From Minisyncoccia bacterium (lineage in GTDB: Bacteria > Patescibacteriota > Minisyncoccia > Phycocordibacterales > UBA918): a stretch of DNA of 61,915 bases. Location: assembly GCA_041742075.1 (NCBI GenBank), contig JBGSJJ010000011.1, forward strand, positions 1 through 61,915, given 5' to 3'. Positions 1,947 to 61,915 of this stretch are shown here, in pieces. The position numbers and the translations under genes are program-made. Below the pieces are notes generated by a model. The model had not been told where the DNA came from. It did no database searches and was given only the letters and a program-made list of their open reading frames with translations. Position 1 is the first letter of the stretch; each line of letters opens with the position of its first letter.

Positions 1947-1950
1947 CTTG

Positions 1951-2083
1951 CTGCCGGTCAGGGAATCTCTCTTGTTACACAAGCAGTATACCTTTTGGCT
2001 ATATTTTCGCTACGCTCAATCTAGCTCAAAAGCTTTTCGAGCCCCTGACGCGAGTGACATATTAGTCACTCGCTATCTGGCAG
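1951..2083 (-). repeat. tRNA-tail mimic element, type 1 (Gln copy; candidate structured RNA)
   Basis: The minus strand reads, in order: CTGCCAG (anti-acceptor), hairpin GCGAGTGAC-taatat-GTCACTCGC, GTCAGGG (anti-T-stem), CTCGAAAAG, P2 CTTTTG...CAAAAG, GTATACTG, hairpin CTTG-TGTAA-CAAG, then CCCTGACCGGCAG. That last segment copies the tRNA-Gln 3' end with one change. Confidence 0.8.
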
Positions 2084-17246: not shown

Positions 17247-17275
17247 GAGTCAGACTTTTGTCTGGCTTTTAATTT
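17247..17275 (+). terminator. Rho-independent terminator after tRNA-Leu(CAA)
   Basis: AGTCAGAC-tttt-GTCTGGCT followed by TTTTAATTTT. Confidence 0.65.
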
Positions 17276-17279
17276 TGTT

Positions 17280-17377
17280 GGAGGGGGTTGAAAACCTTTT
17301 GAGATAGATTTGACTGAAAGGAAAATATATCCAAAAGGTGTACTGAAGTAGTAAACTTCGACCCCCTCCCGAGGCAC
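17280..17377 (+). repeat. tRNA-tail mimic element, type 1 (Leu-CAA copy 1)
   Basis: GGAGGGGGTTGAA (antisense of the T-loop/T-stem), P2 CCTTTTG...CAAAAGG, GTGTACTGA, hairpin GAAGT-agtaa-ACTTC, then TTCGACCCCCTCCCGAGGCACAAA. The last segment is 24 nt identical to the tRNA 3' end. Confidence 0.85.
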
Positions 17378-17440
17378 AAATTGACAAGTCGTAATTAATG
17401 GTGAATCGGGAGGCACAGCTTTTTTGCTAAAAAAAGCGTT

Positions 17441-17520
17441 GTGCGGGGTCGAAGCCGTTGCCAGTTGCCTGCAACGTCAACGGGTACTGAAACTGTAAGT
17501 TTCGACCCCCTCCCGAGGCT
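17441..17520 (+). repeat. tRNA-tail mimic element, type 1 (Leu-CAA copy 2, short core)
   Basis: GTGC-GGGGTCGAA, P2 CCGTTG...CAACGG, GTACTGA, hairpin GAAAC-TGTAA-GTTTC, then the tail CGACCCCCTCCCGAGGCT (one mismatch to the tRNA). Confidence 0.8.
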
Positions 17521-17600
17521 CAAAATTTAAAGTCGGACTTCTAATTGCACTTTAGTGAAAATACTTTACACTTTGACCTGAACTGAACAGGAGAATAAGT

Positions 17601-19875: not shown

Positions 19876-19906
19876 GCCAAAGCGTTTACATAGCTTTGGT
19901 TTTTTC
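19876..19906 (+). terminator. Rho-independent terminator after tRNA-Trp
   Basis: CCAAAGC-gtttacata-GCTTTGG followed by TTTTTT. Confidence 0.7.
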
Positions 19907-19912
19907 TTATTT

Positions 19913-20023
19913 TGCGAGGTCCACGAGGATTCGAAAAGCTTTTGAGATAGATTTGACTGAAAGGAAAATATATCCAAAAGGTATACTGGTCATGTAATGA
20001 CCGAAACTCCTCGTGGGCCCGCA
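19913..20023 (+). repeat. tRNA-tail mimic element, type 1 (Trp copy)
   Basis: TGCGAGGTCCACGAGGA is a near-complete antisense of the tRNA-Trp 3' end. It is followed by TTCGAAAAG, a core 44 nt identical to the Leu-CAA copy, TATACTG, hairpin GGTCA-TGTAA-TGACC, then TCCTCGTGGGCCCGCA (identical to the tRNA tail). Confidence 0.85.
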
Positions 20024-20096: not shown

Positions 20097-20278
20097 GCTA
20101 CTGCGGGAGCCGGAGCGGTGTGAGCTTGCGAACCGCGAGGCGGGGTCGCGAGCGCGAGTGGCGACGAGCGACTTGTGACCGCAAGGGAGGTCCACGAGGA
20201 TTCGAAAAGGTTAACTAATATTTTGTGACGCAGGAGCAAAAATATTGATAACCTGTACTGATACTGTAAGAATCGAAA
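20097..20278 (+). repeat. Variant tail-mimic element: inverted copy of the preceding tail, a GC-rich junction module and a type 1-like core, but no 3' tail
   Basis: GCTACTGCGGG (20097-20107) is the reverse complement of CCCGCAGTAGC (20018-20028). It is followed by AGCCGGAGCGGTGTGAGCTTGCGAACCGCGAGGCGGGG, then GGTCCACGAGGATTCGAAAAGG, P2 GGTTA...TAACC and TGTACTGA...TGTAA. Confidence 0.65.
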
Positions 20279-20287
20279 TACTAAATT

Positions 20288-21553
20288 TTAGCTACCATAA
20301 ATCGAGAAGTGTGGGGCTGATATCCAATCACCTAAAACTTTGATATCAGCAGGATTAACTCCGCCAGCTACCAGCTGGTCACGTTGACCACTTGTTACTA
20401 CTTCATACACAGGACGAAGGCCATTCGCTCGAGCAGCATTAATGACTGTAAGTACTTCTTGAGCGTTCATCCCACCCGCCTTACTATAGTCAACGCACGT
20501 TCCATTCATATGGCACTGACTTTTGTGTACCCGTGACGGAGGCATCGCTTCTGTTACCCGCGAACCGATTACCCCAGCTGACACAATATCGGAATGAAAG
20601 GCATTAAATCTACCAACCAAATCGGGAGCAATTGAACAGCTATTTGAATTTGAGCAGGGTACGTTAAGTGGTACACAGGTGCCACCACTGCAACCCTGAC
20701 TCTGAATAGGGTCTTCATCAGTACCACCACCTGGGTCAGTGGTACAGAAGCCACCAATGGTAGAATTCCCTGTCGGCGGAGTCCAAACTCCTCTCATAAA
20801 TCTACAAGTCTCAACGGCTCCGCTACAATCAGCTACCGCGTCAATTCCGCCACCAGCAAGACACGTAATCGGTACTTGATTTGGTCGTCCCACTGCCCCT
20901 TCACGAATACACGTTACCTGGTTATTTTCTGAGATGTCGGCATCGAGGCGACCTCGAATACACGCTTCTACTGCCGGCTGACAGTCAAAGGAGTTAGTCA
21001 AAATAACAAAGAGACATTGAGTGGTCTGATTCAGTTGACCGACTGGCCCTTCTTCAAAGTTAAACCCAAGGTCTTCAAGCGTTGCTCGAGTATTATTAAA
21101 GTCAATTCCATTCCTGTCACTCTCGACTGGTTCCGGTCGATAGATCTCCCCACACTCAACTGGTTCCCAAACACCATAATCACTTCCCGTTAAAGCTTTC
21201 ATGATAGTGTCAACAATTGTCCACGCAGCGACCAGTAGTATCAATCCAATCATGGCATTAACAAAATACGTCTTGGCGTTTTCATACGCCGACTGGTTCC
21301 CGGCTGAAGTCACGAGACCAAAACCAGCATACGCCAACACCATCACAATGAGCAGAATCGAAATGGTAACAATCCAGTCAACGATGACGTCAAACAACTC
21401 GACAAATAAACAAAAATTACAATCTGTTCCACTACAGGTCACTAAGCCGGCAGGTCCGCTGTCTTGCCCAAACGCTATACTTGGAAATAAAAATAGAAAA
21501 AAAACTAACACTGAAGGGATTTTCATAAGATTGTATAATTTTATAAAATTCAT
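20288..21553 (-). CDS. secreted/membrane fusion protein: pilin-like (VirB2/TrbC-like) N-terminal domain, Cys-rich linker and a LAS/M15-like zinc peptidase C-terminal domain
   Basis: Signal peptide, CSGTDCNFC, two TM helices and YGVWEPVEC. The C-terminal HMNGTCVD (H-x6-D) and APHF resemble VanY/M15 D,D-peptidases. Confidence 0.6.
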   Translation of the reverse strand: MNFIKLYNLMKIPSVLVFFLFLFPSIAFGQDSGPAGLVTCSGTDCNFCLFVELFDVIVDWIVTISILLIVMVLAYAGFGLVTSAGNQSAYENAKTYFVNAMIGLILLVAAWTIVDTIMKALTGSDYGVWEPVECGEIYRPEPVESDRNGIDFNNTRATLEDLGFNFEEGPVGQLNQTTQCLFVILTNSFDCQPAVEACIRGRLDADISENNQVTCIREGAVGRPNQVPITCLAGGGIDAVADCSGAVETCRFMRGVWTPPTGNSTIGGFCTTDPGGGTDEDPIQSQGCSGGTCVPLNVPCSNSNSCSIAPDLVGRFNAFHSDIVSAGVIGSRVTEAMPPSRVHKSQCHMNGTCVDYSKAGGMNAQEVLTVINAARANGLRPVYEVVTSGQRDQLVAGGVNPADIKVLGDWISAPHFSIYGS

Positions 21554-23294: not shown

Positions 23295-23545
23295 ATGCGC
23301 ATGCTCGGGTGGCAGAGTAGAAACAAATAGTTTTCTTTCTACTTGTAAATGACGAGCGATCTGAGTTTACAAAGCAGTGAGTCATAAACTCAAAACAACA
23401 TATAAAGTACAACTTAATAACTATGCGTCGATGGCAGATTTAAAGTAAACTGCTTTACTTTAAATCAAAAGCTGAGCATAATGCGAGTTTACGAGCTAGT
23501 GCGAAATAAACTCAAATGTACAATGTCTACAATTGAATAATAACA
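23295..23545 (+). repeat. Two tandem units of about 125 bp upstream of tRNA-Tyr, each beginning with a copy of the tRNA 5' end
   Basis: Unit A starts ATGCGCATGCTCGGGTGGCAGAG and unit B starts ATGCGTCGATGGCAGA; the tRNA context is ATGCGTCGATGGCGGA. Both units carry a variable first hairpin, then GAGTTTA...TAAACTC, then AAA..TACAA..AATAA. Confidence 0.7.
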
Positions 23546-23547
23546 AT

Positions 23548-23631
23548 GCGTCGATGGCGGAGTGGTCAATCGCAACAGACTGTAAATCTGTCGGACATCG
23601 TCCTACGAAGGTTCGAATCCTTCTCGGCGCA
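23548..23631 (+). tRNA. tRNA-Tyr (anticodon GTA), class II
   Basis: Acceptor GCGTCGA/TCGGCGC, stem ACAGA/TCTGT, loop CTGTAAA, long variable arm, T-arm GAAGG-TTCGAAT-CCTTC. The terminator ATACCC...GGGGTATTTT follows. Confidence 0.9.
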
Positions 23632-23728
23632 CTTTTTAAAATACCCTTATTTATAGGGGTATTTTGTTGAGACAGAACAACTGGTTAGAACCTTTGCTAT
23701 ATTTAATCTTTTGGACTAAGATTTGGAC

Positions 23729-24382
23729 ATGAAAAGTGATTACCAAGAAAAACTCACCTCCCTATCCTCTCACGTTTCTAAAACTCTATTAAAATGGCAG
23801 GGTTTTAAAAAAAGAAGAAACGCATTCAATCGAAAATTGGACGGCGGAATAGTCCAAATAATAAGTTTCCAAGCTGGCAGTTACGAGCCATTTGCTATAG
23901 ACGTCCCAAACATGAACTACTTCCCTAACAGTTTATATGGAAAGTTTACAATCAACTTAGGAATATACATTGATGATTTACAAATTTTCATGCATGGTAA
24001 GAAACCAAAAGATTTTGTAAACGAATACGATTGCCAATTGAGAACGAGAGCTTCACACTTAGTTACCTCAACAGATGAATGGATTTCAATTGATAAAGAT
24101 TTCGATAAATTATCGAAAGAAACTACTAATCTAATTGAAAAATATGCACTACCTTTTCTAGATAGGTTTAATTCAAGAGAAAAAATAGAAGAATATTTTA
24201 AAACTGAAGGGACTACATTAACTAATATCCCTTTGGCATATTTAGCAATAATGTGCCATAAAGATGGTAACAATGAAGCAAGTTCTTCCTACATGAAAAA
24301 ACACATCGACTCAATCGTAAATCATGAAGGTCACAAAGAATATATGTTTGCGTTGGCTAAAAAACTTGGTCTGGATATTTAA
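23729..24382 (+). CDS. hypothetical protein (217 aa), AT-rich; the N-terminus resembles DUF4304-type proteins
   Basis: LLKWQGFKKRRNAFNRKLDGGIVQIISFQ follows the GFKK-x-GN-x-F-x-R...I-x-FQ pattern I recall for DUF4304 (from memory, unverified). The ORF is bracketed by GGTTAGAAC (23683-23691) and GTTCTAACC (24424-24432). Confidence 0.5.
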   Translation: MKSDYQEKLTSLSSHVSKTLLKWQGFKKRRNAFNRKLDGGIVQIISFQAGSYEPFAIDVPNMNYFPNSLYGKFTINLGIYIDDLQIFMHGKKPKDFVNEYDCQLRTRASHLVTSTDEWISIDKDFDKLSKETTNLIEKYALPFLDRFNSREKIEEYFKTEGTTLTNIPLAYLAIMCHKDGNNEASSSYMKKHIDSIVNHEGHKEYMFALAKKLGLDI

Positions 24383-24440
24383 CAAAATTTGGTAGAAAAC
24401 AGTAATCTGACTTAATAATCGCAGTTCTAACCTCTAGCAG

Positions 24441-24490
24441 TCCTGTGCACTTTTTAAAAACGAGCATCCACATTTGTGGGTGCCGTTTTT
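24441..24490 (+). repeat. Degenerate copy of the tRNA-Tyr tail plus downstream TTTTTAAAA and a terminator hairpin
   Basis: TCCTGTGCACTTTTTAAAAA compares with TCCTTCTCGGCGCACTTTTTAAAA at the tRNA, followed by GCATCCACA-ttt-GTGGGTGC and TTTTT. Confidence 0.6.
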
Positions 24491-24494
24491 ATTA

Positions 24495-24630
24495 GTGTGC
24501 CGAGAGTGAGTGACTCAATGTCACTCACGTAAAGATTCGAAAACCTTGCCTACTATTTTATGACGTTAGGAAATAAAATAGTGACAAGGTGTACTGAAGC
24601 TGTAAGCTTCGAAACTCCTTCTCGGCGCAC
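24495..24630 (+). repeat. tRNA-tail mimic element, type 1 (Tyr copy)
   Basis: GTGTGCCGAGA (anti-acceptor), hairpin GTGAGTGAC-tcaat-GTCACTCAC, GATTCGAAAA, P2 ACCTTG...CAAGGT, GTGTACTGA, hairpin GAAGC-TGTAA-GCTTC, then CGAAACTCCTTCTCGGCGCAC. Confidence 0.85.
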
Positions 24631-24635
24631 ATAAC

Positions 24636-26059: not shown

Positions 26060-26264
26060 AAGGTTCGAACCTTCTCCAATCTATACAGATTCCTTACAGG
26101 AACTGTCCACTCATTGGACCTTATGTTTCGCTTCACTTACAAAAGTTCCTCAATGAGTCTTGCGACAAGCTCCCAGCTTGTCTCACTATTCAGGTTGTAT
26201 GATATTTTTGCAAAATATCGACAACTTCTTGCGACAGTTTCCCAAACTGTCTCACCCGGCGCAC
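26060..26264 (+). repeat. tRNA-Tyr T-arm copy, two tandem type 2 modules and an acceptor-tail copy
   Basis: AAGGTTCGAACCTTCTCC; then CCTTACAGGAACTGT, P2 ACTCATTG...CAATGAGT, CTTGCGA, hairpin CAAGCT-ccc-AGCTTG and TCTCA; then hairpin TTGTATGATATTTT/AAAATATCGACAA, CTTGCGA, hairpin CAGTTT-ccc-AAACTG, TCTCA and CCCGGCGCAC. Confidence 0.75.
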
Positions 26265-36836: not shown

Positions 36837-36902
36837 CTCAATCGGGCTTCGATTCCCTTTGACCAAAATAAAAGGCCTGACATAAAGTCTGGCCAATCAT
36901 TT

Positions 36903-37134: not shown

Positions 37135-37154
37135 CAGCAACGAAGTTGATGAAT

Positions 37155-37254
37155 GGCGGGAATTGAAGACCTTGCGAGACAAGTTTGACTGAAAGGAAAA
37201 CATGTCCACAAGGTGTACTGAAACTGTAAGTTTCAATTCCCGCCCCGGCCTCAG
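37155..37254 (+). repeat. tRNA-tail mimic element, type 1 (Cys copy; minimal, no intervening terminator)
   Basis: GGCGGGAATTGAA (exact antisense of TTCAATTCCCGCC), P2 ACCTTG...CAAGGT, GTGTACTGA, hairpin GAAAC-TGTAA-GTTTC, then TTCAATTCCCGCCCCGGCCTCAG. The last segment is 23 nt identical to 37115-37137. Confidence 0.85.
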
Positions 37255-37398: not shown

Positions 37399-37529
37399 CA
37401 TCGGTATACTAAAATTAACCCTGGACATAAGTCCAGGGTTAATTTAAATGACGACAAATAAGCCTGGGTTTCAACTAATGAAAATAATATTGAACTGTGA
37501 TACACTCTTTCGGCACACACATTTTAATT

Positions 37530-37611
37530 GCGCGGGTGGTGAAATTGGTATACACGTTAGTCTTAGGAACTAATGGGGCAACCCGTGGAGGTTCAAGTCC
37601 TCTCCCGCGCA
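37530..37611 (+). tRNA. tRNA-Leu (anticodon TAG), class II
   Basis: Acceptor GCGCGGG/CCCGCGC, stem TTAGT/ACTAA, loop CTTAGGA, T-arm GGAGG-TTCAAGT-CCTCT. Confidence 0.9.
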
Positions 37612-37650
37612 CAAAGTAAAAGCTAGGCCTTGTGTCTAGCTTTTTGCTTT

Positions 37651-37852
37651 GTGCGTGAGCTTGCGTGGGGTGGACTTGAAAACCTTGTGTGACAGATTCG
37701 ACCAGAGGAGAATATGTCCACAAGGTGTACTGAACCTGTAAGGTTCAAGTCCTCTTCTTACAGAAGCTGTATACCTTATCAGTATTCCTCGCTTCGCTCA
37801 GAATACTAGATAAGGTCTTGCAAAGTGCTCCCAGCACTTTTCACCCGCGCAC
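37651..37852 (+). repeat. tRNA-tail mimic element, type 1 (Leu-TAG copy 1), with its tail split by a nested type 2 module
   Basis: GTGCG-TGAGCTTGCG-TGGGGTGGACTTGAA, P2 ACCTTGTG...CACAAGGT, GTACTGA, hairpin GAACC-TGTAA-GGTTC, CAAGTCCTCT, then an 88-nt insert, then CCCGCGCAC. Confidence 0.85.
37756..37843 (+). repeat. type 2 module nested between the T-stem copy and the acceptor copy of the duplicated Leu-TAG tail
   Basis: TCTTACAGAAGCTGTAT, P2 ACCTTATCAGTATT...AATACTAGATAAGGT, CTTGCAA, hairpin AGTGCT-ccc-AGCACT, TTTCA. Same 88-nt length and same first 22 nt as 45644-45731. Confidence 0.8.
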
Positions 37853-37880
37853 AAAATAAAACGCCTTCGGGCGTTTTATT

Positions 37881-38025
37881 GTGCGCGGAGCAAACGATAG
37901 TTTGCGGAGAGGACTTGAAAAGATGGAGTATATCGCACGGAGTGAAATAGTCTGGGAGACTATTTCATCGAGTACGATACGACATCTGTACCGCTCCTGT
38001 AAGGAGAAAGATTCCTCTCCCACAC
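37881..38025 (+). repeat. tRNA-tail mimic element, type 1 (Leu-TAG copy 2, divergent core, degenerate tail)
   Basis: GTGCGCGG, hairpin GCAAAC-gata-GTTTGC, GGAGAGGACTTGAAAA (exact antisense of the tRNA 3' end), P2 GATG...CATC, TGTACCG, hairpin CTCC-TGTAA-GGAG, then ATTCCTCTCCCACAC. Confidence 0.7.
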
Positions 38026-38060
38026 AAAATTAAAAGCCAGGCTTTGTGTCTTTTAATTTT

Positions 38061-38078
38061 GTGCGTGAGCTTGCGTGG
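38061..38078 (+). repeat. Truncated 5' piece of another Leu-TAG element (GTGCGTGAGCTTGCGTGG)
   Basis: Identical to 37651-37668. It is cut off by the 3' end of trhO. Confidence 0.6.
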
Positions 38079-38085
38079 TGATGAT

Positions 38086-39117
38086 TTATGAGCTCTTCAA
38101 GCGATGTTTCTTAAACTGAGCTGGGCGGAAATACTGATTATAGGTACGGGCATACCATTTCTTAAACCGTGCTGGCAAAAAGTCTGAAAGTAGACACCAA
38201 TACGAACAATACCCCTGCTTCTGTCTAATACACGAATCACACCCGAGGAACAAGACATGACAGACTTTGTTTTTGCAGTGGTAATGCGTGTCACTTTTTG
38301 CCGTATGGCAGAGGTGGCAGTTTGAAATAATTTCCTCACCAATTCGTTCTCCAAGCCGTTCGTCAAACACAAAGTTCTTCCCTAGAAATTTATTTGGAAG
38401 CCCCTCACGCTCCACCTGATGCTTGTAGTCGATAATTCCTCCTCGCAAATGGCGAACATCAGTATAGCCATTATGCTTAAGCCATGCGCTCGCCTTTTCA
38501 CAGCGAATACCACCAGTGCAATACAGCGCTATTTTTTTATTTTTATGAACGCGAAGTAGTTCAGGTGCCACCATGAGTTCTTCCCGAAACGTATCAACTT
38601 GAGGCAGGATAGCGCCATCAAAATGTCCAATTTCACTTTCATAGGCGTTGCGCATATCAACCACAATCGCATCCGGATCGGCTATGTACTCATTCATCTC
38701 ACGAGCCGTAAGATATGCTCCAGTGTTAGTCACGTCAAACGAAGCATCGTCAAGCCCGTCAGCCACAATCTTATCCTTCACCTTTACCGTGAGCTTATAG
38801 AACGAACTACTATCCCCTTCTTCAACCGCGATTTTATACGGAATACCCTGAAACTCTGGGATGTTTTTTATGAACGCATCAAACTGATCAAACAGATAGG
38901 CCGGCACATTCATTTGGGCATTGATACCTTCACAAGCAACATAGATACGCCCCAAACAACCAAGCGCATGCAGGCGTTCAAATAGTCTGTCCCGCATCGC
39001 TTCTGGGTCAGCAATCTCAACATATTTATAAAACGACAAGGTACGCCGTGGAATACCGTCACTCTGTACTGACTGACGTTTTTCGTCTCGCGGGCGCATG
39101 TCCTTTACTATAGCCAT
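38086..39117 (-). CDS. trhO: rhodanese-domain tRNA uridine(34) hydroxylase (UPF0176/YceA family)
   Basis: SFYKYVEIADPEAMRD...GRIYVACEGINAQ, rhodanese active-site loop YCTGGIRCEKA, C-terminal Cys cluster. Confidence 0.85.
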   Translation of the reverse strand: MAIVKDMRPRDEKRQSVQSDGIPRRTLSFYKYVEIADPEAMRDRLFERLHALGCLGRIYVACEGINAQMNVPAYLFDQFDAFIKNIPEFQGIPYKIAVEEGDSSSFYKLTVKVKDKIVADGLDDASFDVTNTGAYLTAREMNEYIADPDAIVVDMRNAYESEIGHFDGAILPQVDTFREELMVAPELLRVHKNKKIALYCTGGIRCEKASAWLKHNGYTDVRHLRGGIIDYKHQVEREGLPNKFLGKNFVFDERLGERIGEEIISNCHLCHTAKSDTHYHCKNKVCHVLFLGCDSCIRQKQGYCSYWCLLSDFLPARFKKWYARTYNQYFRPAQFKKHRLKSS

Positions 39118-41561: not shown

Positions 41562-41921
41562 TTAGAAACCGGTAGTAGGGCCTTCTCCAAGGGAAGATAC
41601 AAATGAATCCAATATAAAATTAACAACACCCCAGATGGCTACTATGAGGACCAAACCAAGTACCCCCCACACCATAAGCGCCTTACCACTCTCCCGTGCC
41701 TCTTGATTGTCTGCGCCCGCAATAAAGTACCGAAAAATACCATAACAAAACACAAACACAGCCAGAGCAAATACGAGTGGTAGCAGGGTACTAGAAATAA
41801 AATCAGTAGCGCTCAAAAAAACCCGATTCAAACCTCCGAGATTATTAGCAGTTTGAGCAAAAGCGAGACTTGGAACAAGCAACGTAACTGTACCAAAAAG
41901 ACTACGTGGGATATGCTTCAT
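41562..41921 (-). CDS. pilin-like small membrane protein (paralog)
   Basis: AFAQTANNLGGLN...LLPLVFALAVFVFCYGIFRYFIAGADNQEARESGKALMVWGVLGLVLIVAIWGVVNFI. Confidence 0.65.
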   Translation of the reverse strand: MKHIPRSLFGTVTLLVPSLAFAQTANNLGGLNRVFLSATDFISSTLLPLVFALAVFVFCYGIFRYFIAGADNQEARESGKALMVWGVLGLVLIVAIWGVVNFILDSFVSSLGEGPTTGF

Positions 41922-42057
41922 ATATTATACCTACATTAAAGCATAGTCTAAGCAGACTGTAACAAACAATCTGAACACAACTTAAAACTCTTCTGCGAAA
42001 GCAGAAGAGTTTTAAGTAACAATTTTAGCCGGAAGGCGAAAGAGTTATAGTTTATAA

Positions 42058-42447
42058 CTATGCACCTGGAACAGTTGGAAGGTTTACACCTTGCCCATCG
42101 AGAGCAGTACCGCCTGTTGCGCCACTTAAGATATCGATCACGAGGTTTACAATACCCCATACCGCTACAATGAGTACTAGACCGAGGATACCCCAGATCA
42201 TGAGACTCTTGCCACTCTCTCGAGCTGCTTCGTCTCCACCACCAAGGATGAAGTACTTGAAGATACCGTATACGAATACGAGTAGAGCGAGTGCAAAAAC
42301 AAGTGGTAGAAGTGTGCTTGAAACAAAGTCTGTAATCGCAAGGAAAAAGTTGTTAAGACCACCAAGATCATCTGCTGTTTGGGCAAACGCAAATACTGGG
42401 AATAAGAAGACTGCTACAGGTGCTAAATAAGAAAATGATTTTTTCAT
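42058..42447 (-). CDS. pilin-like small membrane protein (paralog)
   Basis: AFAQTADDLGGLN...LLPLVFALALLVFVYGIFKYFILGGGDEAARESGKSLMIWGILGLVLIVAVWGIVNLVI. Confidence 0.65.
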   Translation of the reverse strand: MKKSFSYLAPVAVFLFPVFAFAQTADDLGGLNNFFLAITDFVSSTLLPLVFALALLVFVYGIFKYFILGGGDEAARESGKSLMIWGILGLVLIVAVWGIVNLVIDILSGATGGTALDGQGVNLPTVPGA

Positions 42448-42575
42448 AAACTAAATAAATATTAATAATTCCGACTTACTGGTAATGATAGCACCAAATT
42501 TTACGTAAACAAAGGCTCATTACACTGACTGTGTATAAGCTGTAATGGAGATTACAGGGAAAAGTGGGCTTGAAA

Positions 42576-42965
42576 CTAGACTGGCATCGCAGGCACATTT
42601 ACCGTGTTGTCAAACGGAGTAGCGCCGGTAGAGCTGTCAAGAACACTGATCACGAGGTTTACAATCCCCCATACTGCCACTATAAGTACCAAACCAAGGA
42701 TACCCCAGATCATGAGACTCTTGCCACTCTCTCGATCATCTTCGTTGGCGCCACCAAGGATAAAGTACTTGAAAATGCCGTAGACAAAGGCTACGAGAGC
42801 AATCGCAAACAGAAATGGCAATATGGTACTACCAAGAAAAGCGGTGATATTAAGGAAAAACGTGTTGAGTCCACCAAAAGCGGCAGCATCGCCTTGAGCA
42901 GCAAACACCATAAGGGGTGAAAGAATTGAAGCAATAACAGCTAAATGTAAAAATGTTTTTTTCAT
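42576..42965 (-). CDS. pilin-like small membrane protein (paralog)
   Basis: Start set at MKKTFLHLAVIAS. Contains ...ILPFLFAIALVAFVYGIFKYFILGGANEDDRESGKSLMIWGILGLVLIVAVWGIVNLVI. Confidence 0.65.
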   Translation of the reverse strand: MKKTFLHLAVIASILSPLMVFAAQGDAAAFGGLNTFFLNITAFLGSTILPFLFAIALVAFVYGIFKYFILGGANEDDRESGKSLMIWGILGLVLIVAVWGIVNLVISVLDSSTGATPFDNTVNVPAMPV

Positions 42966-45479: not shown

Positions 45480-45643
45480 TTCTTTAAGTATACCTTGTCT
45501 GTTCGTAAAAAAACTGCACCGGGTGTGTAAAGAGCTTTGCTTATATAGTTTGCCCGACACGGATAGTGCCAAGCTCCCGCAGGACGCAAACGCGGTTCCT
45601 CCCTAGGCATATTTTCCTAAGCAAGACGCCAAGCGCCATTTCT

Positions 45644-45731
45644 TCTTACAGAAGCTGTATACCTTGTCAGTATTTTTCATTCTTCAAAATACTAGGCAAG
45701 GTCTTGCGAAGTGACATTGAATCACTTCTCA
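45644..45731 (+). repeat. type 2 module, orphan copy with no tRNA nearby
   Basis: TCTTACAGAAGCTGTAT, P2 ACCTTGTCAGTATT...AATACTAGGCAAGGT, CTTGCGA, hairpin AGTGA-cattgaa-TCACT, TCTCA, then CCCTGGTGGG. Confidence 0.75.
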
Positions 45732-45955
45732 CCCTGGTGGGTTGTGTAAATCACAGAGCGAAGCGACGCGCTGTGCGTATGAAAATCATAGTCACTTTGT
45801 TCCTTGATTTACACAATGATTTTCATACATAGAAAATTCTATTCCTAATGGATTTTCTATGCAGCTATTTATTATTTCCCTTTGTCCAGCGATTTTCTCT
45901 GGGGAGAAAAAATCGGGACATAAGTTCGCAATAGTCGCTACGCTCCTTTGCTTAC

Positions 45956-61128: not shown

Positions 61129-61898
61129 TTGGTTTCTCAAGAACACACCAGTACTATCACCATAGACAGCCAGCCAAGGACTGGGCGACCAAGCAGCTCA
61201 TAGAGATGGCTCTGCGTGATCACCCCAGCTATGGCCACAAACGTCTGGCACTCCACCTCAAACTAAACAAGAAACGTATCCTGCGAGTGATGCAGCTATT
61301 CGGTATTAAACCATACCGCCGGATCACTCCTAAACTCTATAAAAAGCCTAAGGACAGCGTCTTTCCTAACCTTCTAATGACGGAAACACCCCTTGGTCCC
61401 GGTGATATCTATGCGAGTGATTTCACCTATCTGAAGTACTACGGACGCTGGGTGTATGTGGCCACAATACTTGATGTGTTCACGCGGGAGATTGTGGGTG
61501 TCTCGGTATTAACGACTCACCACACCCAGCTGGTATTAAACGCGCTTGGTGCAGCCGTACTCAATCGTCCACCGCCTCGGATCATCCACTCTGATCAAGG
61601 GAGTGAGTATACTTCAGCAGACTATACTAACTTGGTGCAGTCTCTCAAGATTAAGCAGTCTATGAGTGCGCCGGGGTGCCCTTGGGAGAATGGGTACCAG
61701 GAGTCCTTTTATAAAGGCTTCAAACTTGATCTAGGTGACCCTAATCGGTTTGAGACACTTGGTGAACTAGTGGCAGCGGTGTATCAAACGATTAATTACT
61801 ATAATCAAAAGCGGATACACTCAGCCCTGAAACTACCACCGCGGTTGTTTAAAGAGCAGTTTGAGGTATCATTAATGGACTTAGAAAAGGTGTCTTAA
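61101..61898 (+). CDS. IS3-family transposase OrfB (DDE/rve core), expressed by a -1 frameshift at A AAA AAA G (61101-61108)
   Basis: DFTYLKY...HSDQGSEYTS...ENGYQESFYKGFK (D, D, E spacing). The -1 frame from 61101 reads KKRALQGLVIGFSRTH. Confidence 0.85.
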   Translation, partial: KKRALQGLVIGFSRTHQYYHHRQPAKDWATKQLIEMALRDHPSYGHKRLALHLKLNKKRILRVMQLFGIKPYRRITPKLYKKPKDSVFPNLLMTETPLGPGDIYASDFTYLKYYGRWVYVATILDVFTREIVGVSVLTTHHTQLVLNALGAAVLNRPPPRIIHSDQGSEYTSADYTNLVQSLKIKQSMSAPGCPWENGYQESFYKGFKLDLGDPNRFETLGELVAAVYQTINYYNQKRIHSALKLPPRLFKEQFEVSLMDLEKVS

Positions 61899-61915
61899 TT
61901 TTGGGGTACCTTCCA

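Follow-up and report, generated by a model that had tools for sequence, protein, structure and literature searches.

Small modular elements anchored on the tRNA 3' tail form a tandem array behind tRNA-Leu(TAG) in a Minisyncoccia genome

What are the repeated units that lie between tRNA-Leu(TAG) and trhO in this genome, and how did copies of the tail of the tRNA come to be in them? The window analysed here is the whole stretch of 61,915 nucleotides from a Minisyncoccia bacterium. By sequence inspection and self-comparison, there are three units 3' of the tRNA, each a hairpin spacer followed by an element. The same three units had been recognized in the initial annotation, and their coordinates are unchanged or move by 1-2 nt. 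The last ~22 nt of the tRNA, from T54 at 37592 through the discriminator at 37611 plus the following CA, is the stretch copied downstream in both orientations. The layout is as follows.

37530-37612, plus strand: tRNA-Leu(TAG), discriminator at 37611 (ARAGORN; Rfam tRNA, 57.6 bits)
37613-37649, plus strand: spacer 1, a terminator-like hairpin with its stem at 37618-37644 (terminator scan; inverted repeat I11)
37650-37755, plus strand: element E1, type 1 (covariance model R1, 77.3 bits, E = 2.5e-16)
37650-37655, plus strand: E1 anti-acceptor, TGTGCG
37656-37665, plus strand: E1 P1a remnant, TGAGCTTGCG
37666-37680, plus strand: E1 anti-T arm
37683-37725, plus strand: E1 P2
37726-37731, plus strand: E1 J23, TGTACT
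37732-37746, plus strand: E1 P3
37744-37755, plus strand: T-part of the E1 tail copy
37756-37843, minus strand: nested "type 2" core (covariance model match at 37753-37819, minus strand, E = 0.004)
37844-37855, plus strand: acceptor part of the E1 tail copy and shared flank, CCCGCGCACAAA (24-nt direct repeat with the tRNA after removal of the insert)
37856-37878, plus strand: spacer 2 hairpin, AAAACGCCTTCGGGCGTTTT (sequence; comparison with the relative L121)
37879-38027, plus strand: element E2 (covariance model, 22.2 bits, E = 0.003; fold z = -5.0)
38028-38059, plus strand: spacer 3 hairpin, 88% identical to spacer 1 (direct repeat D3)
38060-38078, plus strand: E3 stub, equal to the first 19 nt of E1 (BLAST)

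The spacers had been called terminators. That fits spacer 1, which passes a simple terminator scan and whose stem is lengthened where the tRNA tail CGCACAAAG pairs with TTTGTGCG at the start of the element. Spacers 2 and 3 fail the scan and are hairpins in an A-tract/hairpin/T-tract arrangement. In L121, the spacer 2 hairpin sits directly 3' of the tRNA. E1, the insert and E2 are all above chance: a covariance model from other loci finds each of them (E = 2.5e-16, 0.004 and 0.003, respectively), and the array elements fold with z-scores of -5 to -7 against shuffles.

E1 is present as first described, except that it starts at 37650 and not 37651. Its tail copy AGGTTCAAGTCCTCT (37741-37755) is an exact 15-nt match to tRNA-Leu(TAG), and it resumes as CCCGCGCACAAA at 37844. 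The 88 nt in between (37756-37843) are, as had been proposed, a discrete module that splits the copied tail at the T-stem/acceptor (65/66) junction. Removing them in silico leaves a perfect 24-nt copy of the tRNA tail and flank, and E1 then folds at -52 kcal/mol (z = -5.9). The insertion is accompanied by neither target duplication nor deletion, and microhomology (TCT / CCC) leaves either end uncertain by 3 nt. On the minus strand the order is GGGTGA, the P1a hairpin, GCAAGACC, P2, AAGGTATACAG and P3 CTTCTGTAAGAAG. Hairpins near both ends and no duplication invite comparison with IS200/IS605-type PATE and REP/RAYT elements; no TnpA/RAYT is encoded within the window.

The antisense arms of E2 are exact, with 10 nt (TTGTGCGCGG) and 14 nt (GGAGAGGACTTGAA) separated by the P1a hairpin AGCAAACGATAGTTTGC at 37889-37905. 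The perfect antisense split by a hairpin and the decayed tail thus stand as first reported, with blocks of 10 + 14 nt instead of 8 + 16 and a span of 37879-38027. E2 also has a long P2, a J23 of CTGTACC and a P3, and its tail has decayed to ...CCTCTCCCACACA. The third unit does begin identically to E1, but the match is 21 nt at 100% by BLAST (38058-38078 to 37648-37668), where 18 nt had been given, and it ends 7 nt before the trhO stop codon (38086-38088). E2 is the ortholog of the sole element behind tRNA-Leu(TAG) in L121. E2 would be the old, shared unit of the array, and the E1 unit lies between the tRNA and E2. The type 2 core would have entered, or been carried in, the E1 tail copy, and E3 would be a truncated relic.

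The region is a tandem array of small modular elements that are anchored on the tRNA 3' tail and occur throughout Patescibacteria. An exact 20-base motif of the family is found at at least 119 loci, against ~1 expected by chance, and all are in Patescibacteria (CPR) or unclassified MAGs, except for one MAG labelled Patiriisocius. A same-strand tRNA lies upstream in the locus for 85 of 122 motif matches, and in 81 of these cases the distance to the motif is 1-340 nt. Between them, the tRNAs represent 18 amino acids; a separate survey of tail copies adds tRNA-Asn as a 19th. A downstream sense copy of nt 60-73 follows 59 of 182 surveyed tRNAs, and an upstream copy precedes none of the 182. tmRNA genes were considered as further targets, but the loci examined contain none. 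Rfam 15 at gathering score finds only tRNAs in the window, and permissive searches found nothing credible at E <= 10 over 37400-38200 or at E <= 1 over eight other loci. A full-text literature search found no description of these elements. Neither Rfam nor the literature searched yielded a counterpart for elements that copy a tRNA tail in both orientations.

A full element consists of a 5' arm antisense to the local tRNA tail, the small hairpin P1a, a three-way-junction core and a 3' arm. The 5' arm is complementary to the last ~20 nt of the neighbouring tRNA and is usually split at 65/66 by P1a. The core has J12 (GAARAC), a covarying P2, J23 (GUGUACU), and a P3 that has a UGUAA loop and stacks directly on P1. 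The 3' arm directly repeats 21-24 nt of the tRNA, beginning at T54 and ending 1-4 nt beyond the discriminator. Covariation is strong: 94.7% of cells are paired versus 75% in shuffles, double changes occur in 16 of 18 pairs (matched by 0 of 500 shuffles), and slid controls collapse. The sense strand folds better than the reverse complement in 83 of 94 elements (p = 3e-13), and P1 contains 36 G.U against 9 A.C, so the tRNA-sense strand is the strand selected to fold. The junction nucleotides are near-invariant across deep CPR lineages. The arms are often imperfect (70-90% complementary) and the tail copies are perfect, which argues that the arms are not re-templated at each event. P3 was considered as an anticodon-loop mimic and set aside because the pair closing its 5-nt loop covaries. 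Hammerhead and other small ribozymes and box C/D were rejected because the junction strands (GAARAC / GUGUACU / 0 nt) misfit on inspection and Rfam gave no match. A group II intron was rejected because the 5' GTGCG is the reverse complement of the tail of this tRNA and is absent at other tRNAs.

The window holds several more type 1 elements.

1948-2066, minus strand: behind tRNA-Gln(CTG), same strand as the tRNA (covariance model, 57 bits)
17263-17379, plus strand: first of two behind tRNA-Leu(CAA) (covariance model, 96.6 bits)
17424-17523, plus strand: second behind tRNA-Leu(CAA) (covariance model, 57.6 bits)
19906-20022, plus strand: first of two behind tRNA-Trp (covariance model, 84.8 bits)
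20177-20294, plus strand: second behind tRNA-Trp (covariance model, 50.0 bits); its 5' arm holds a GC-rich module of ~75 nt, and its tail has decayed
24512-24632, plus strand: element with a tRNA-Tyr tail copy (covariance model, 96 bits; Pfam; sequence)
37138-37254, plus strand: behind tRNA-Cys, the Cys tail being directly repeated over 23 nt (covariance model, 91.9 bits)

The Leu(CAA) and Trp elements have the very same 42-nt P2 despite their differing arms. In each of the tandem pairs, the tRNA-proximal copy is better preserved than the distal one, as judged by covariance model score: 96.6 versus 57.6 bits at Leu(CAA), 84.8 versus 50.0 at Trp and 77.3 versus 22.2 at Leu(TAG).

Relatives for a strain comparison were found through TrhO homologues; an exact TrhO look-up gave the same sequence only. 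The units are gained, lost and amplified between close relatives in clean events bounded by direct repeats. Filled and empty sites are paired between the window and L121 at tRNA-Cys (empty in L121), tRNA-Lys and tRNA-Leu(TAG), with direct repeats of 23, 22 and 24 nt that begin at T54, and native flank follows the distal copy. A second relative, L122, is empty behind tRNA-Leu(TAG) and has no elements behind any of its three tRNAs. L121 itself has 3.6 identical 167-nt units behind tRNA-Leu(TAA). ORFs occur between the tRNA and the element-plus-tail at the Tyr locus of the window, where a DUF4304 ORF lies in the 0.9 kb between tRNA-Tyr and the element, and at four other loci (L023, L028, L031 and L040); the cargo includes DUF4304, DUF6671, a Zn ribbon, an IucA/C-like protein, hydrolases and unknowns. 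The units themselves are 120-240 nt, and no integrase was found in any cargo examined. One further locus, L087, has three Tyr-type arrays between unrelated accessory genes.

We tentatively read the elements as non-autonomous, attC-like recombination modules anchored on the tRNA T-loop and tail, a reading to which we give a little less than an even chance. Their action would resemble that of integron attC sites or of the attP that CTX phage forms by folding a single strand. Once single-stranded, the two arms would pair into a duplex copy of the tRNA gene tail, and a putative recombinase supplied in trans would exchange strands at the G53/T54 border of the T-loop. Through this exchange the module, carrying cargo ORFs or none, would come to lie beside the tRNA, and a tail duplication would be left behind. 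The direct repeats would then drive loss and tandem amplification.

The likeness to attC includes an imperfect inverted repeat that forms a strand-specific hairpin with bulges and a variable centre (here the P1 arms and the bulged P1a). Like integron cassettes, the units are arrayed beside a fixed site, often lack ORFs or carry 1-3 promoterless ones, and join the fixed site at G/TT. The differences are that there is no IntI, attI or Pc, and the arrays begin at tRNA genes. The R boxes RYYYAAC / GTTRRRY are absent, the junction being N/TTCRAN in the T-loop with C rather than a purine at position 4. The stem copies ~20 nt of the local tRNA tail and so differs at every locus, a 21-24-nt direct repeat is created, and the centre is a conserved three-way junction. 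The attP of CTX-type phages, which are IMEX exploiting XerCD, resembles the elements in that a hairpin of one strand rebuilds a duplex mimicking the chromosomal target; here, however, the target is a tRNA tail and not dif, and there is no phage genome.

A direct repeat from the T-loop to the end of the tRNA is also the classical mark of tRNA-targeted integration by islands and prophages with tyrosine or serine integrases, in which the distal copy likewise keeps the native flank and a single tRNA can collect several inserts. Tandem accretion and cargo ORFs would likewise be expected if the units were attL/attR scars of classical integrase-carrying islands or prophages, later decayed, with the core representing the arm region of one widespread attP, and L090 has a gene for a large serine recombinase next to a tRNA-Ala that is accompanied by an Ala-tailed element. 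We nevertheless consider this very improbable. Such islands use one or a few tRNA species, and here one core serves 18-19. The inserts are miniature (~120-170 nt), carry an antisense copy of the tail and lack an integrase; genes in the window are housekeeping only, with no recombinase, integrase or tyrosine recombinase among them. The covariation, strand bias and antisense arms would have no role in a classical att site. Finally, the motif has 0 matches in 2.9 million viral contigs, on which ground a viral origin was rejected as well.

Several points weigh on our preferred reading of the elements as recombination modules, among them the imperfect arms beside perfect tail copies and the absence of the integron R boxes. 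A site read by a protein would have to fit 18-19 tail sequences, unless the conserved T-loop alone is read. All of the presence/absence differences might have arisen as losses, by deletion between the direct repeats, from elements that are ancient and inherited vertically. The near-invariant junction nucleotides are more typical of a functional RNA, and this leads to the main rival, in which the tRNA 3' trailer contains each element as a functional structured RNA. When transcription reads through, the element's antisense arm could pair either with the tRNA's own tail, as an extended terminator hairpin, or with the downstream tail copy, as a P1 closed by the three-way junction. Such an RNA could be a switch, a processing signal or an acceptor/T-stem minihelix mimic affecting 3' maturation or stability of the tRNA, and the copy-number dynamics would be a by-product of the direct repeats. 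Besides the covariation and the G.U bias on the tRNA-sense strand, it would account for the orientation of full type 1 elements, which share the strand of the cognate tRNA whenever it is adjacent (L090 is one inverted case). It would also suit the retention of the anti-acceptor arm at 12 of 21 elements in which the cis tail has decayed; the retained arm is still complementary to the real tRNA tail and fits pairing with it.

Sequence conservation is in line with the same RNA explanation. E2 is 90% identical to its ortholog in L121, far above neutral spacers and above trhO (76.8% in the same genome pair), and over the first ~140 nt the figure is ~96%. This suggests constraint beyond that of selfish DNA. 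P1 reproduces the cognate acceptor and T-stem pairs together with the discriminator, at which the tail copy stops, and CCA is enriched after the copy in about 12 elements whose tRNA gene lacks it, a likeness to the tRNA-like minihelices of tmRNA (TLD), viral TLS and mascRNA. This CCA could be a sign of reverse-transcribed mature tRNA, but a distal copy that is itself the native end of the gene would explain it equally well. Unlike those minihelices, however, P1 continues 2-3 bp past the discriminator, its T-loop is paired with the 5' arm so that there is no elbow, and there are no D or anticodon equivalents; it is not a faithful top half of a tRNA. About three quarters of the elements are preceded by a terminator-like hairpin with a T-tract, close relatives differ in whether orthologous tRNAs carry an element, all three tRNAs of L122 lack one, and the arrays hold decaying distal copies and stubs cut by genes. 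At two loci (L028 and L123), unrelated cores lie between arms of the same kind. With the opposite-strand copies described next, these observations make a trailer RNA unlikely in our estimation, though we take it seriously.

The nested insert had been taken for a second type of element. It is not: its core is the type 1 three-way junction, read on the opposite strand. We keep the label type 2 for such copies, which are without an anti-T arm and sense tail of their own. Two more are in the window.

26076-26264, minus strand: type 2 core with a tandem P1a module, upstream of an NYN-domain gene (covariance model, 22.1 bits; flanks; Pfam)
45641-45738, minus strand: type 2 core between gyrA and a methyltransferase gene (covariance model, 26.9 bits)

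The nested insert is 77% identical to the copy at 45641-45738, with the last 33 nt near-identical. Its placement at 65/66 had suggested recognition of tRNA-tail sequence or structure by type 2. The placement does recur. In a relative (L124), a degenerate tRNA-Leu(TAG) tail is interrupted at 65/66 by a type 2 core on the opposite strand (TCAAGTCAT / core / CACCGGCAC). The window copy upstream of the NYN-domain gene, taken here as 26089-26264, has the flanks GTGCGCCG and GAGAAGGTTCGAACC, which together make up the tRNA-Tyr tail in antisense, divided no more than ~2 nt from 65/66; the joint probability by chance is estimated at ~1e-4 or less. Recognisable tail flanks are absent, however, at the copy at 45641-45738 and at L019, L049, L085 and L097. 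These tail-less copies lie between ordinary genes. Active recognition of the tail by type 2 is therefore not demonstrated. No conserved gene was found beside type 2 copies, the neighbours being ftsZ, rplK, RNase Y, gyrA and others. Where flanks exist, they may be arms belonging to the element rather than to the target. Since P1a occupies the equivalent junction of the antisense arm in type 1, 65/66 is a general boundary between modules.

Split antisense arms flanking P1a, or flanking a whole core in type 2, raise a further alternative, in which an RNA (or ssDNA) uses the arms as guides to steer a trans-encoded enzyme to the tRNA tail. The antisense halves around the hairpin would define a crossover or cleavage point at 65/66, as in IS110 bridge RNAs, TIGR-Tas or box C/D. 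Modules do sit inserted at the junction that the two halves define, the core is constant like a scaffold while the arms vary, and split-guide systems exist, including a CPR-specific TasR clade (PMC12045711). But here one strand pairs with both halves, which abut on the target, whereas bridge RNA and tigRNA guides pair with opposite strands and lie beside a DEDD/Nop-domain protein; no such gene or other candidate is in the window or beside the elements. The border of the direct repeat is at T54 and not at 65/66, and a type 1 guide would be occupied by the tail in cis. We therefore think a guide function improbable. TIGR-Tas arrays combine dual spacers of 8-12 nt with box C/D motifs and a Tas gene next to them (PMC12045711), and on those three features the present arrays were judged different from them.

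The elements also share with REP/BIME, MITEs and pdif modules that they are short, non-coding hairpin elements that are abundant between genes, often after genes or terminators, and dynamic in copy number; alternating site orientation is a further likeness to pdif. In contrast to all of these, the terminal repeats match the local tRNA and are not conserved between copies, and the core is conserved across phylum-level lineages. As MITEs they fail, in that the arms differ with the tRNA and the duplication is 21-24 nt, fixed in position from T54, versus 2-10 bp in MITEs.

If the elements are recombination modules, then tRNA genes would be a general docking platform for small cassettes in a large radiation of tiny genomes, with site specificity written in nucleic acid, as a copy of the target, and not in a dedicated integrase. 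The principle of integron attC and CTX attP would extend to a programmable, target-mimicking site, and much unannotated intergenic DNA behind CPR tRNA genes would be explained. A recombinase or RNA-binding partner conserved across Patescibacteria would be expected. More broadly, and with distinctly less confidence, we can imagine that Patescibacteria possess an unrecognised nucleic-acid-templated recombination platform. The T-loop and tail of every tRNA gene would be an attachment site, miniature cassettes with no recombinase of their own would be captured, stacked, inverted and lost via hairpins bearing the tail in both orientations, and the three-way junction would be a handle for the putative trans enzyme, or else the transcript would regulate the adjacent tRNA. 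If instead the elements are trailer RNAs, nearly every tRNA would be coupled to a structured RNA of a new class. On the practical side, the tail copies and stubs can mislead tRNA, pseudogene and genomic-island callers.

Three units, each a hairpin spacer followed by an element, lie 3' of tRNA-Leu(TAG), and the array folds much more stably than its shuffles (z −5 to −7).

Features of the array behind tRNA-Leu(TAG)
37530-37612: tRNA-Leu(TAG)
37613-37649: hairpin spacer of unit 1, the only one of the three spacers to pass a simple terminator scan
37650 onwards: element of unit 1 (E1)
37741-37755: exact tRNA-tail repeat at the 3' end of E1, AGGTTCAAGTCCTCT, continuing as CCCGCGCACAAA from 37844
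37756-37843: module inserted in that tail; 3 nt are ambiguous at either border (TCT, CCC)
37879-38027: unit 2 (E2), with two blocks of exact antisense (10 nt and 14 nt), a 17-nt hairpin between them and a decayed tail
up to 7 nt before the trhO stop: unit 3 (E3), a stub of 19-21 nt with the same sequence as the beginning of unit 1

The initial annotation read the unit 1 tail copy as interrupted by a module, and excising 37756-37843 does restore a perfect 24-nt copy of tail and flank, with neither duplication nor deletion. Its decayed unit 2 tail and its third-unit stub are likewise present in the sequence. The small hairpin splitting the unit 2 antisense is there as well, but not the block sizes of 8 and 16 nt assigned to it.

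A full element (type 1) opens with an anti-acceptor segment of 7-10 nt, absent from some copies, followed by a small hairpin, P1a (frequently GAGC...GCG), and an anti-T segment complementary to the 3' strand of the T-stem and the T-loop. The core then runs from junction strand J12 (GAARAC) through a long covarying hairpin, P2, and junction strand J23 (GUGUACU) to P3 (GAANN-UGUAA-NNUUC), which stacks on helix P1 without a linker. The 3' end repeats the local tRNA, starting at T54 in the T-loop and running to the discriminator plus 1-4 nt; in many elements an insertion of 2 nt or 14 nt (AAGCGTACTCGCGG) separates positions 59 and 60 of this repeat. The type 2 module, initially taken for a second kind of element, reads GGGTGAG, P1a, CGCAAGACC, P2, AAGGTRTACWG, P3, and has neither anti-T arm nor sense tail. 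This is the type 1 core on the opposite strand, so the two types are one family.

The same architecture recurs in the window behind five further tRNAs, invariably on the tRNA's own strand: tRNA-Leu(CAA) and tRNA-Trp (two copies each), tRNA-Tyr, tRNA-Cys and, on the minus strand, tRNA-Gln. Scanning with a covariance model, filters off, gives nine full copies and three limited to the core, each of these three on the minus strand (37753-37819, 45641-45705 and 26089-26161), and at least one copy stands behind six of the nine window tRNAs. In every window array the proximal copy outscores the distal one under the model. The 42-nt P2 is identical between the Leu(CAA) and Trp elements despite their differing arms, which indicates that cores were copied or converted between loci recently. 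Behind tRNA-Leu(TAA) there is only a post-terminator stub (36838-36875, minus strand), TGGTCAAAGGGAATCGAAGCC, corresponding to the anti-T arm and J12 and abutting the end of rbfA.

The fold is under selection. Over 136 model hits, in an alignment fitted to the covariance model itself, standard pairs fill 94.7% of cells against 75.2% in shuffles, and both partners vary in 16 of 18 pairs. None of 500 shuffles reaches any observed covariation measure, and the signal collapses when partners are slid by 1-3 columns. An independent MAFFT/RNAalifold run recovers the same helices, with compensation in 11 of the 18 pairs. Of 94 elements, 83 fold better as the tRNA-sense strand than as the reverse complement (Wilcoxon p = 3e-13), and in P1 G.U outnumbers A.C by 36 to 9. 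This shows that one strand, the tRNA-sense strand, is selected to fold, which fits RNA and single-stranded DNA alike.

Four syntenic relatives, obtained through TrhO homologues, bear on the history of these sites. In locus L121, whose TrhO is 87% identical to that of the window in amino acids (76.8% in nucleotides), tRNA-Leu(TAG) is followed by spacer 2 and E2 only, so E2 is the common, older unit; the E1 unit that separates this tRNA from E2 in the window is absent. L121 has an element at tRNA-Lys where the window has none, the window has one at tRNA-Cys where L121 has none, and at tRNA-Leu(TAA) L121 has 3.6 identical 167-nt units against the stub in the window. Each filled site equals the empty one plus the insert and a 22-24-nt direct repeat that starts at T54, with the native flank resuming after the distal copy; with four relatives, gain and loss are indistinguishable. 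L122 has a bare terminator behind tRNA-Leu(TAG), L123 has a different core between matching arms, and L124 has a degenerate tail with a type 2 core inside.

The direct repeats are fixed in position, units are gained or lost cleanly, proximal copies are the better preserved, cargo is optional, cores are interchangeable, folding is strand-specific, the elements sit behind terminators and there is no local recombinase. Together these facts fit best with non-autonomous recombination modules whose site is the tRNA T-loop and tail. The module hairpin would reproduce the target duplex and, by analogy, may act like the attC sites of integrons or the folded CTX phage attP. Unlike integrons, these modules have neither R box nor intI, and they differ from classical islands in lacking an integrase and in their target range. 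The main rival is that the elements are a functional trailer RNA. It draws on near-invariant junction nucleotides, on arms that have stayed complementary to the real tRNA, and on how well E2 is conserved: about 96% over 140 nt, compared with 76.8% in trhO and about 47% in neutral spacers. The recombination and trailer RNA readings are not exclusive of each other.

The optional cargo consists of 1-3.4 kb of ORFs between tRNA and tail copy at five loci, none of which encodes a recombinase there: DUF4304 at tRNA-Tyr in the window, small membrane ORFs in L028, DUF6671 and a Zn ribbon in L031, IucA/C-like proteins and hydrolases in L040, and unknown ORFs in L023. The window plus strand has three directly oriented occurrences of the tRNA-Tyr tail (in the tRNA itself, at 24612-24632, and split around a type 2 core at 26076-26264), which enclose two ORF-containing segments. 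The window encodes no integrase, transposase or reverse transcriptase and otherwise carries housekeeping genes. L087 has three Tyr-type arrays amid unrelated accessory genes, without a tRNA gene.

The initial annotation also suggested that type 2 recognises the sequence or structure of the tRNA tail. An antisense tail split at or within about 2 nt of the T-stem/acceptor junction (65/66) does flank three copies: 37756-37843 (Leu-TAG), its counterpart in L124, and 26089-26264 (Tyr). In the Tyr copy the core directly adjoins a tail 8-mer (null 0.023), and 17 of 18 positions match downstream (null <0.007). No tail flanks the copy at 45641 or several copies from other genomes, and tail-less copies adjoin ftsZ, rplK, RNase Y and gyrA. 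Type 1 elements have P1a at the corresponding point of their antisense arm, which makes 65/66 a general boundary between two palindromic modules. One comprises the acceptor part, spacer hairpin and anti-acceptor, the other the anti-T, core and T part. One count supports this view: of 21 elements with a decayed acceptor copy of their own, 12 still have the anti-acceptor arm, with no more than 1 mismatch in 8.

Across 185,579 species genomes, an exact motif of 20 specified bases taken from the core has at least 119 matching stretches, with about 1 expected by chance; in 2.9 million viral contigs it has none. Named records among the matches listed are all Patescibacteria or unclassified MAGs, bar one MAG labelled Patiriisocius. 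A same-strand tRNA lies upstream within the locus for 85 of 122 motif matches, 81 of them 1-340 nt before the motif; these tRNAs, to which the respective 3' arms correspond, represent 18 amino acids. A tail-copy survey adds tRNA-Asn as a nineteenth. Among the 182 tRNAs surveyed, in loci chosen by motif and so with fractions biased upward, a sense copy of nt 60-73 (at most 1 mismatch) lies downstream of 59 and upstream of none; antisense copies are also downstream only. No Rfam family matches, and we found no description of such an element in the literature.

Several further features accompany these loci. Most tRNA genes across them lack an encoded CCA, CAA coming next, and about a dozen element tail copies have CCA where the adjacent tRNA gene has none. 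GAGC-NNN-GCGA recurs in P1a, the P2 apex and spacers such as GTGAACGAAGTGAACG (L003, L023, L027, L029 and L054 among others; window 37656-37665 and 37802-37812); it includes GCGAAGC, a DNA mini-hairpin of very high stability. Tail and antitail arms of this kind also have other, unrelated GC-rich modules (GGAGCCGG...GGGGTCGCGA...GTGAC) between or within them (window 20098-20186; L028 5960-6030; L123 4690-4790), so the arms host several core families. Upstream of tRNA-Tyr, an approximately 122-nt tandem duplication (23363-23563) includes a second copy of the stretch immediately 5' of the gene and of its first ~13 nt (atgcgtcgatggc at 23424 and 23546). The DUF4304 ORF between tRNA-Tyr and its element has a hairpin of its own; its segment (23633-24460), with a 13-nt direct repeat, GCACTTTTTAAAA, at the borders, resembles a distinct cassette inserted at the tRNA-Tyr end. 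In L090 (2600-4825) a tRNA-Ala-tailed element, inverted relative to tRNA-Ala, sits upstream of that gene and is adjoined by a large serine recombinase ORF that runs into tRNA-Ala antisense. A group I intron (Rfam, 76 bits) directly precedes the element in L059 (2539-2777, minus strand), presumably inside the adjacent tRNA gene. Three direct repeats of about 230 nt at 41610-42877 (period about 520 nt) are tandem T4SS-pilin paralogues. A 35-nt imperfect palindrome, TTAGAAAAGGTGTGCCAAATTTGGGGTACCTTCCA, found at both window ends (105-139 and 61881-61915, 89% identity), may be another repeat family.
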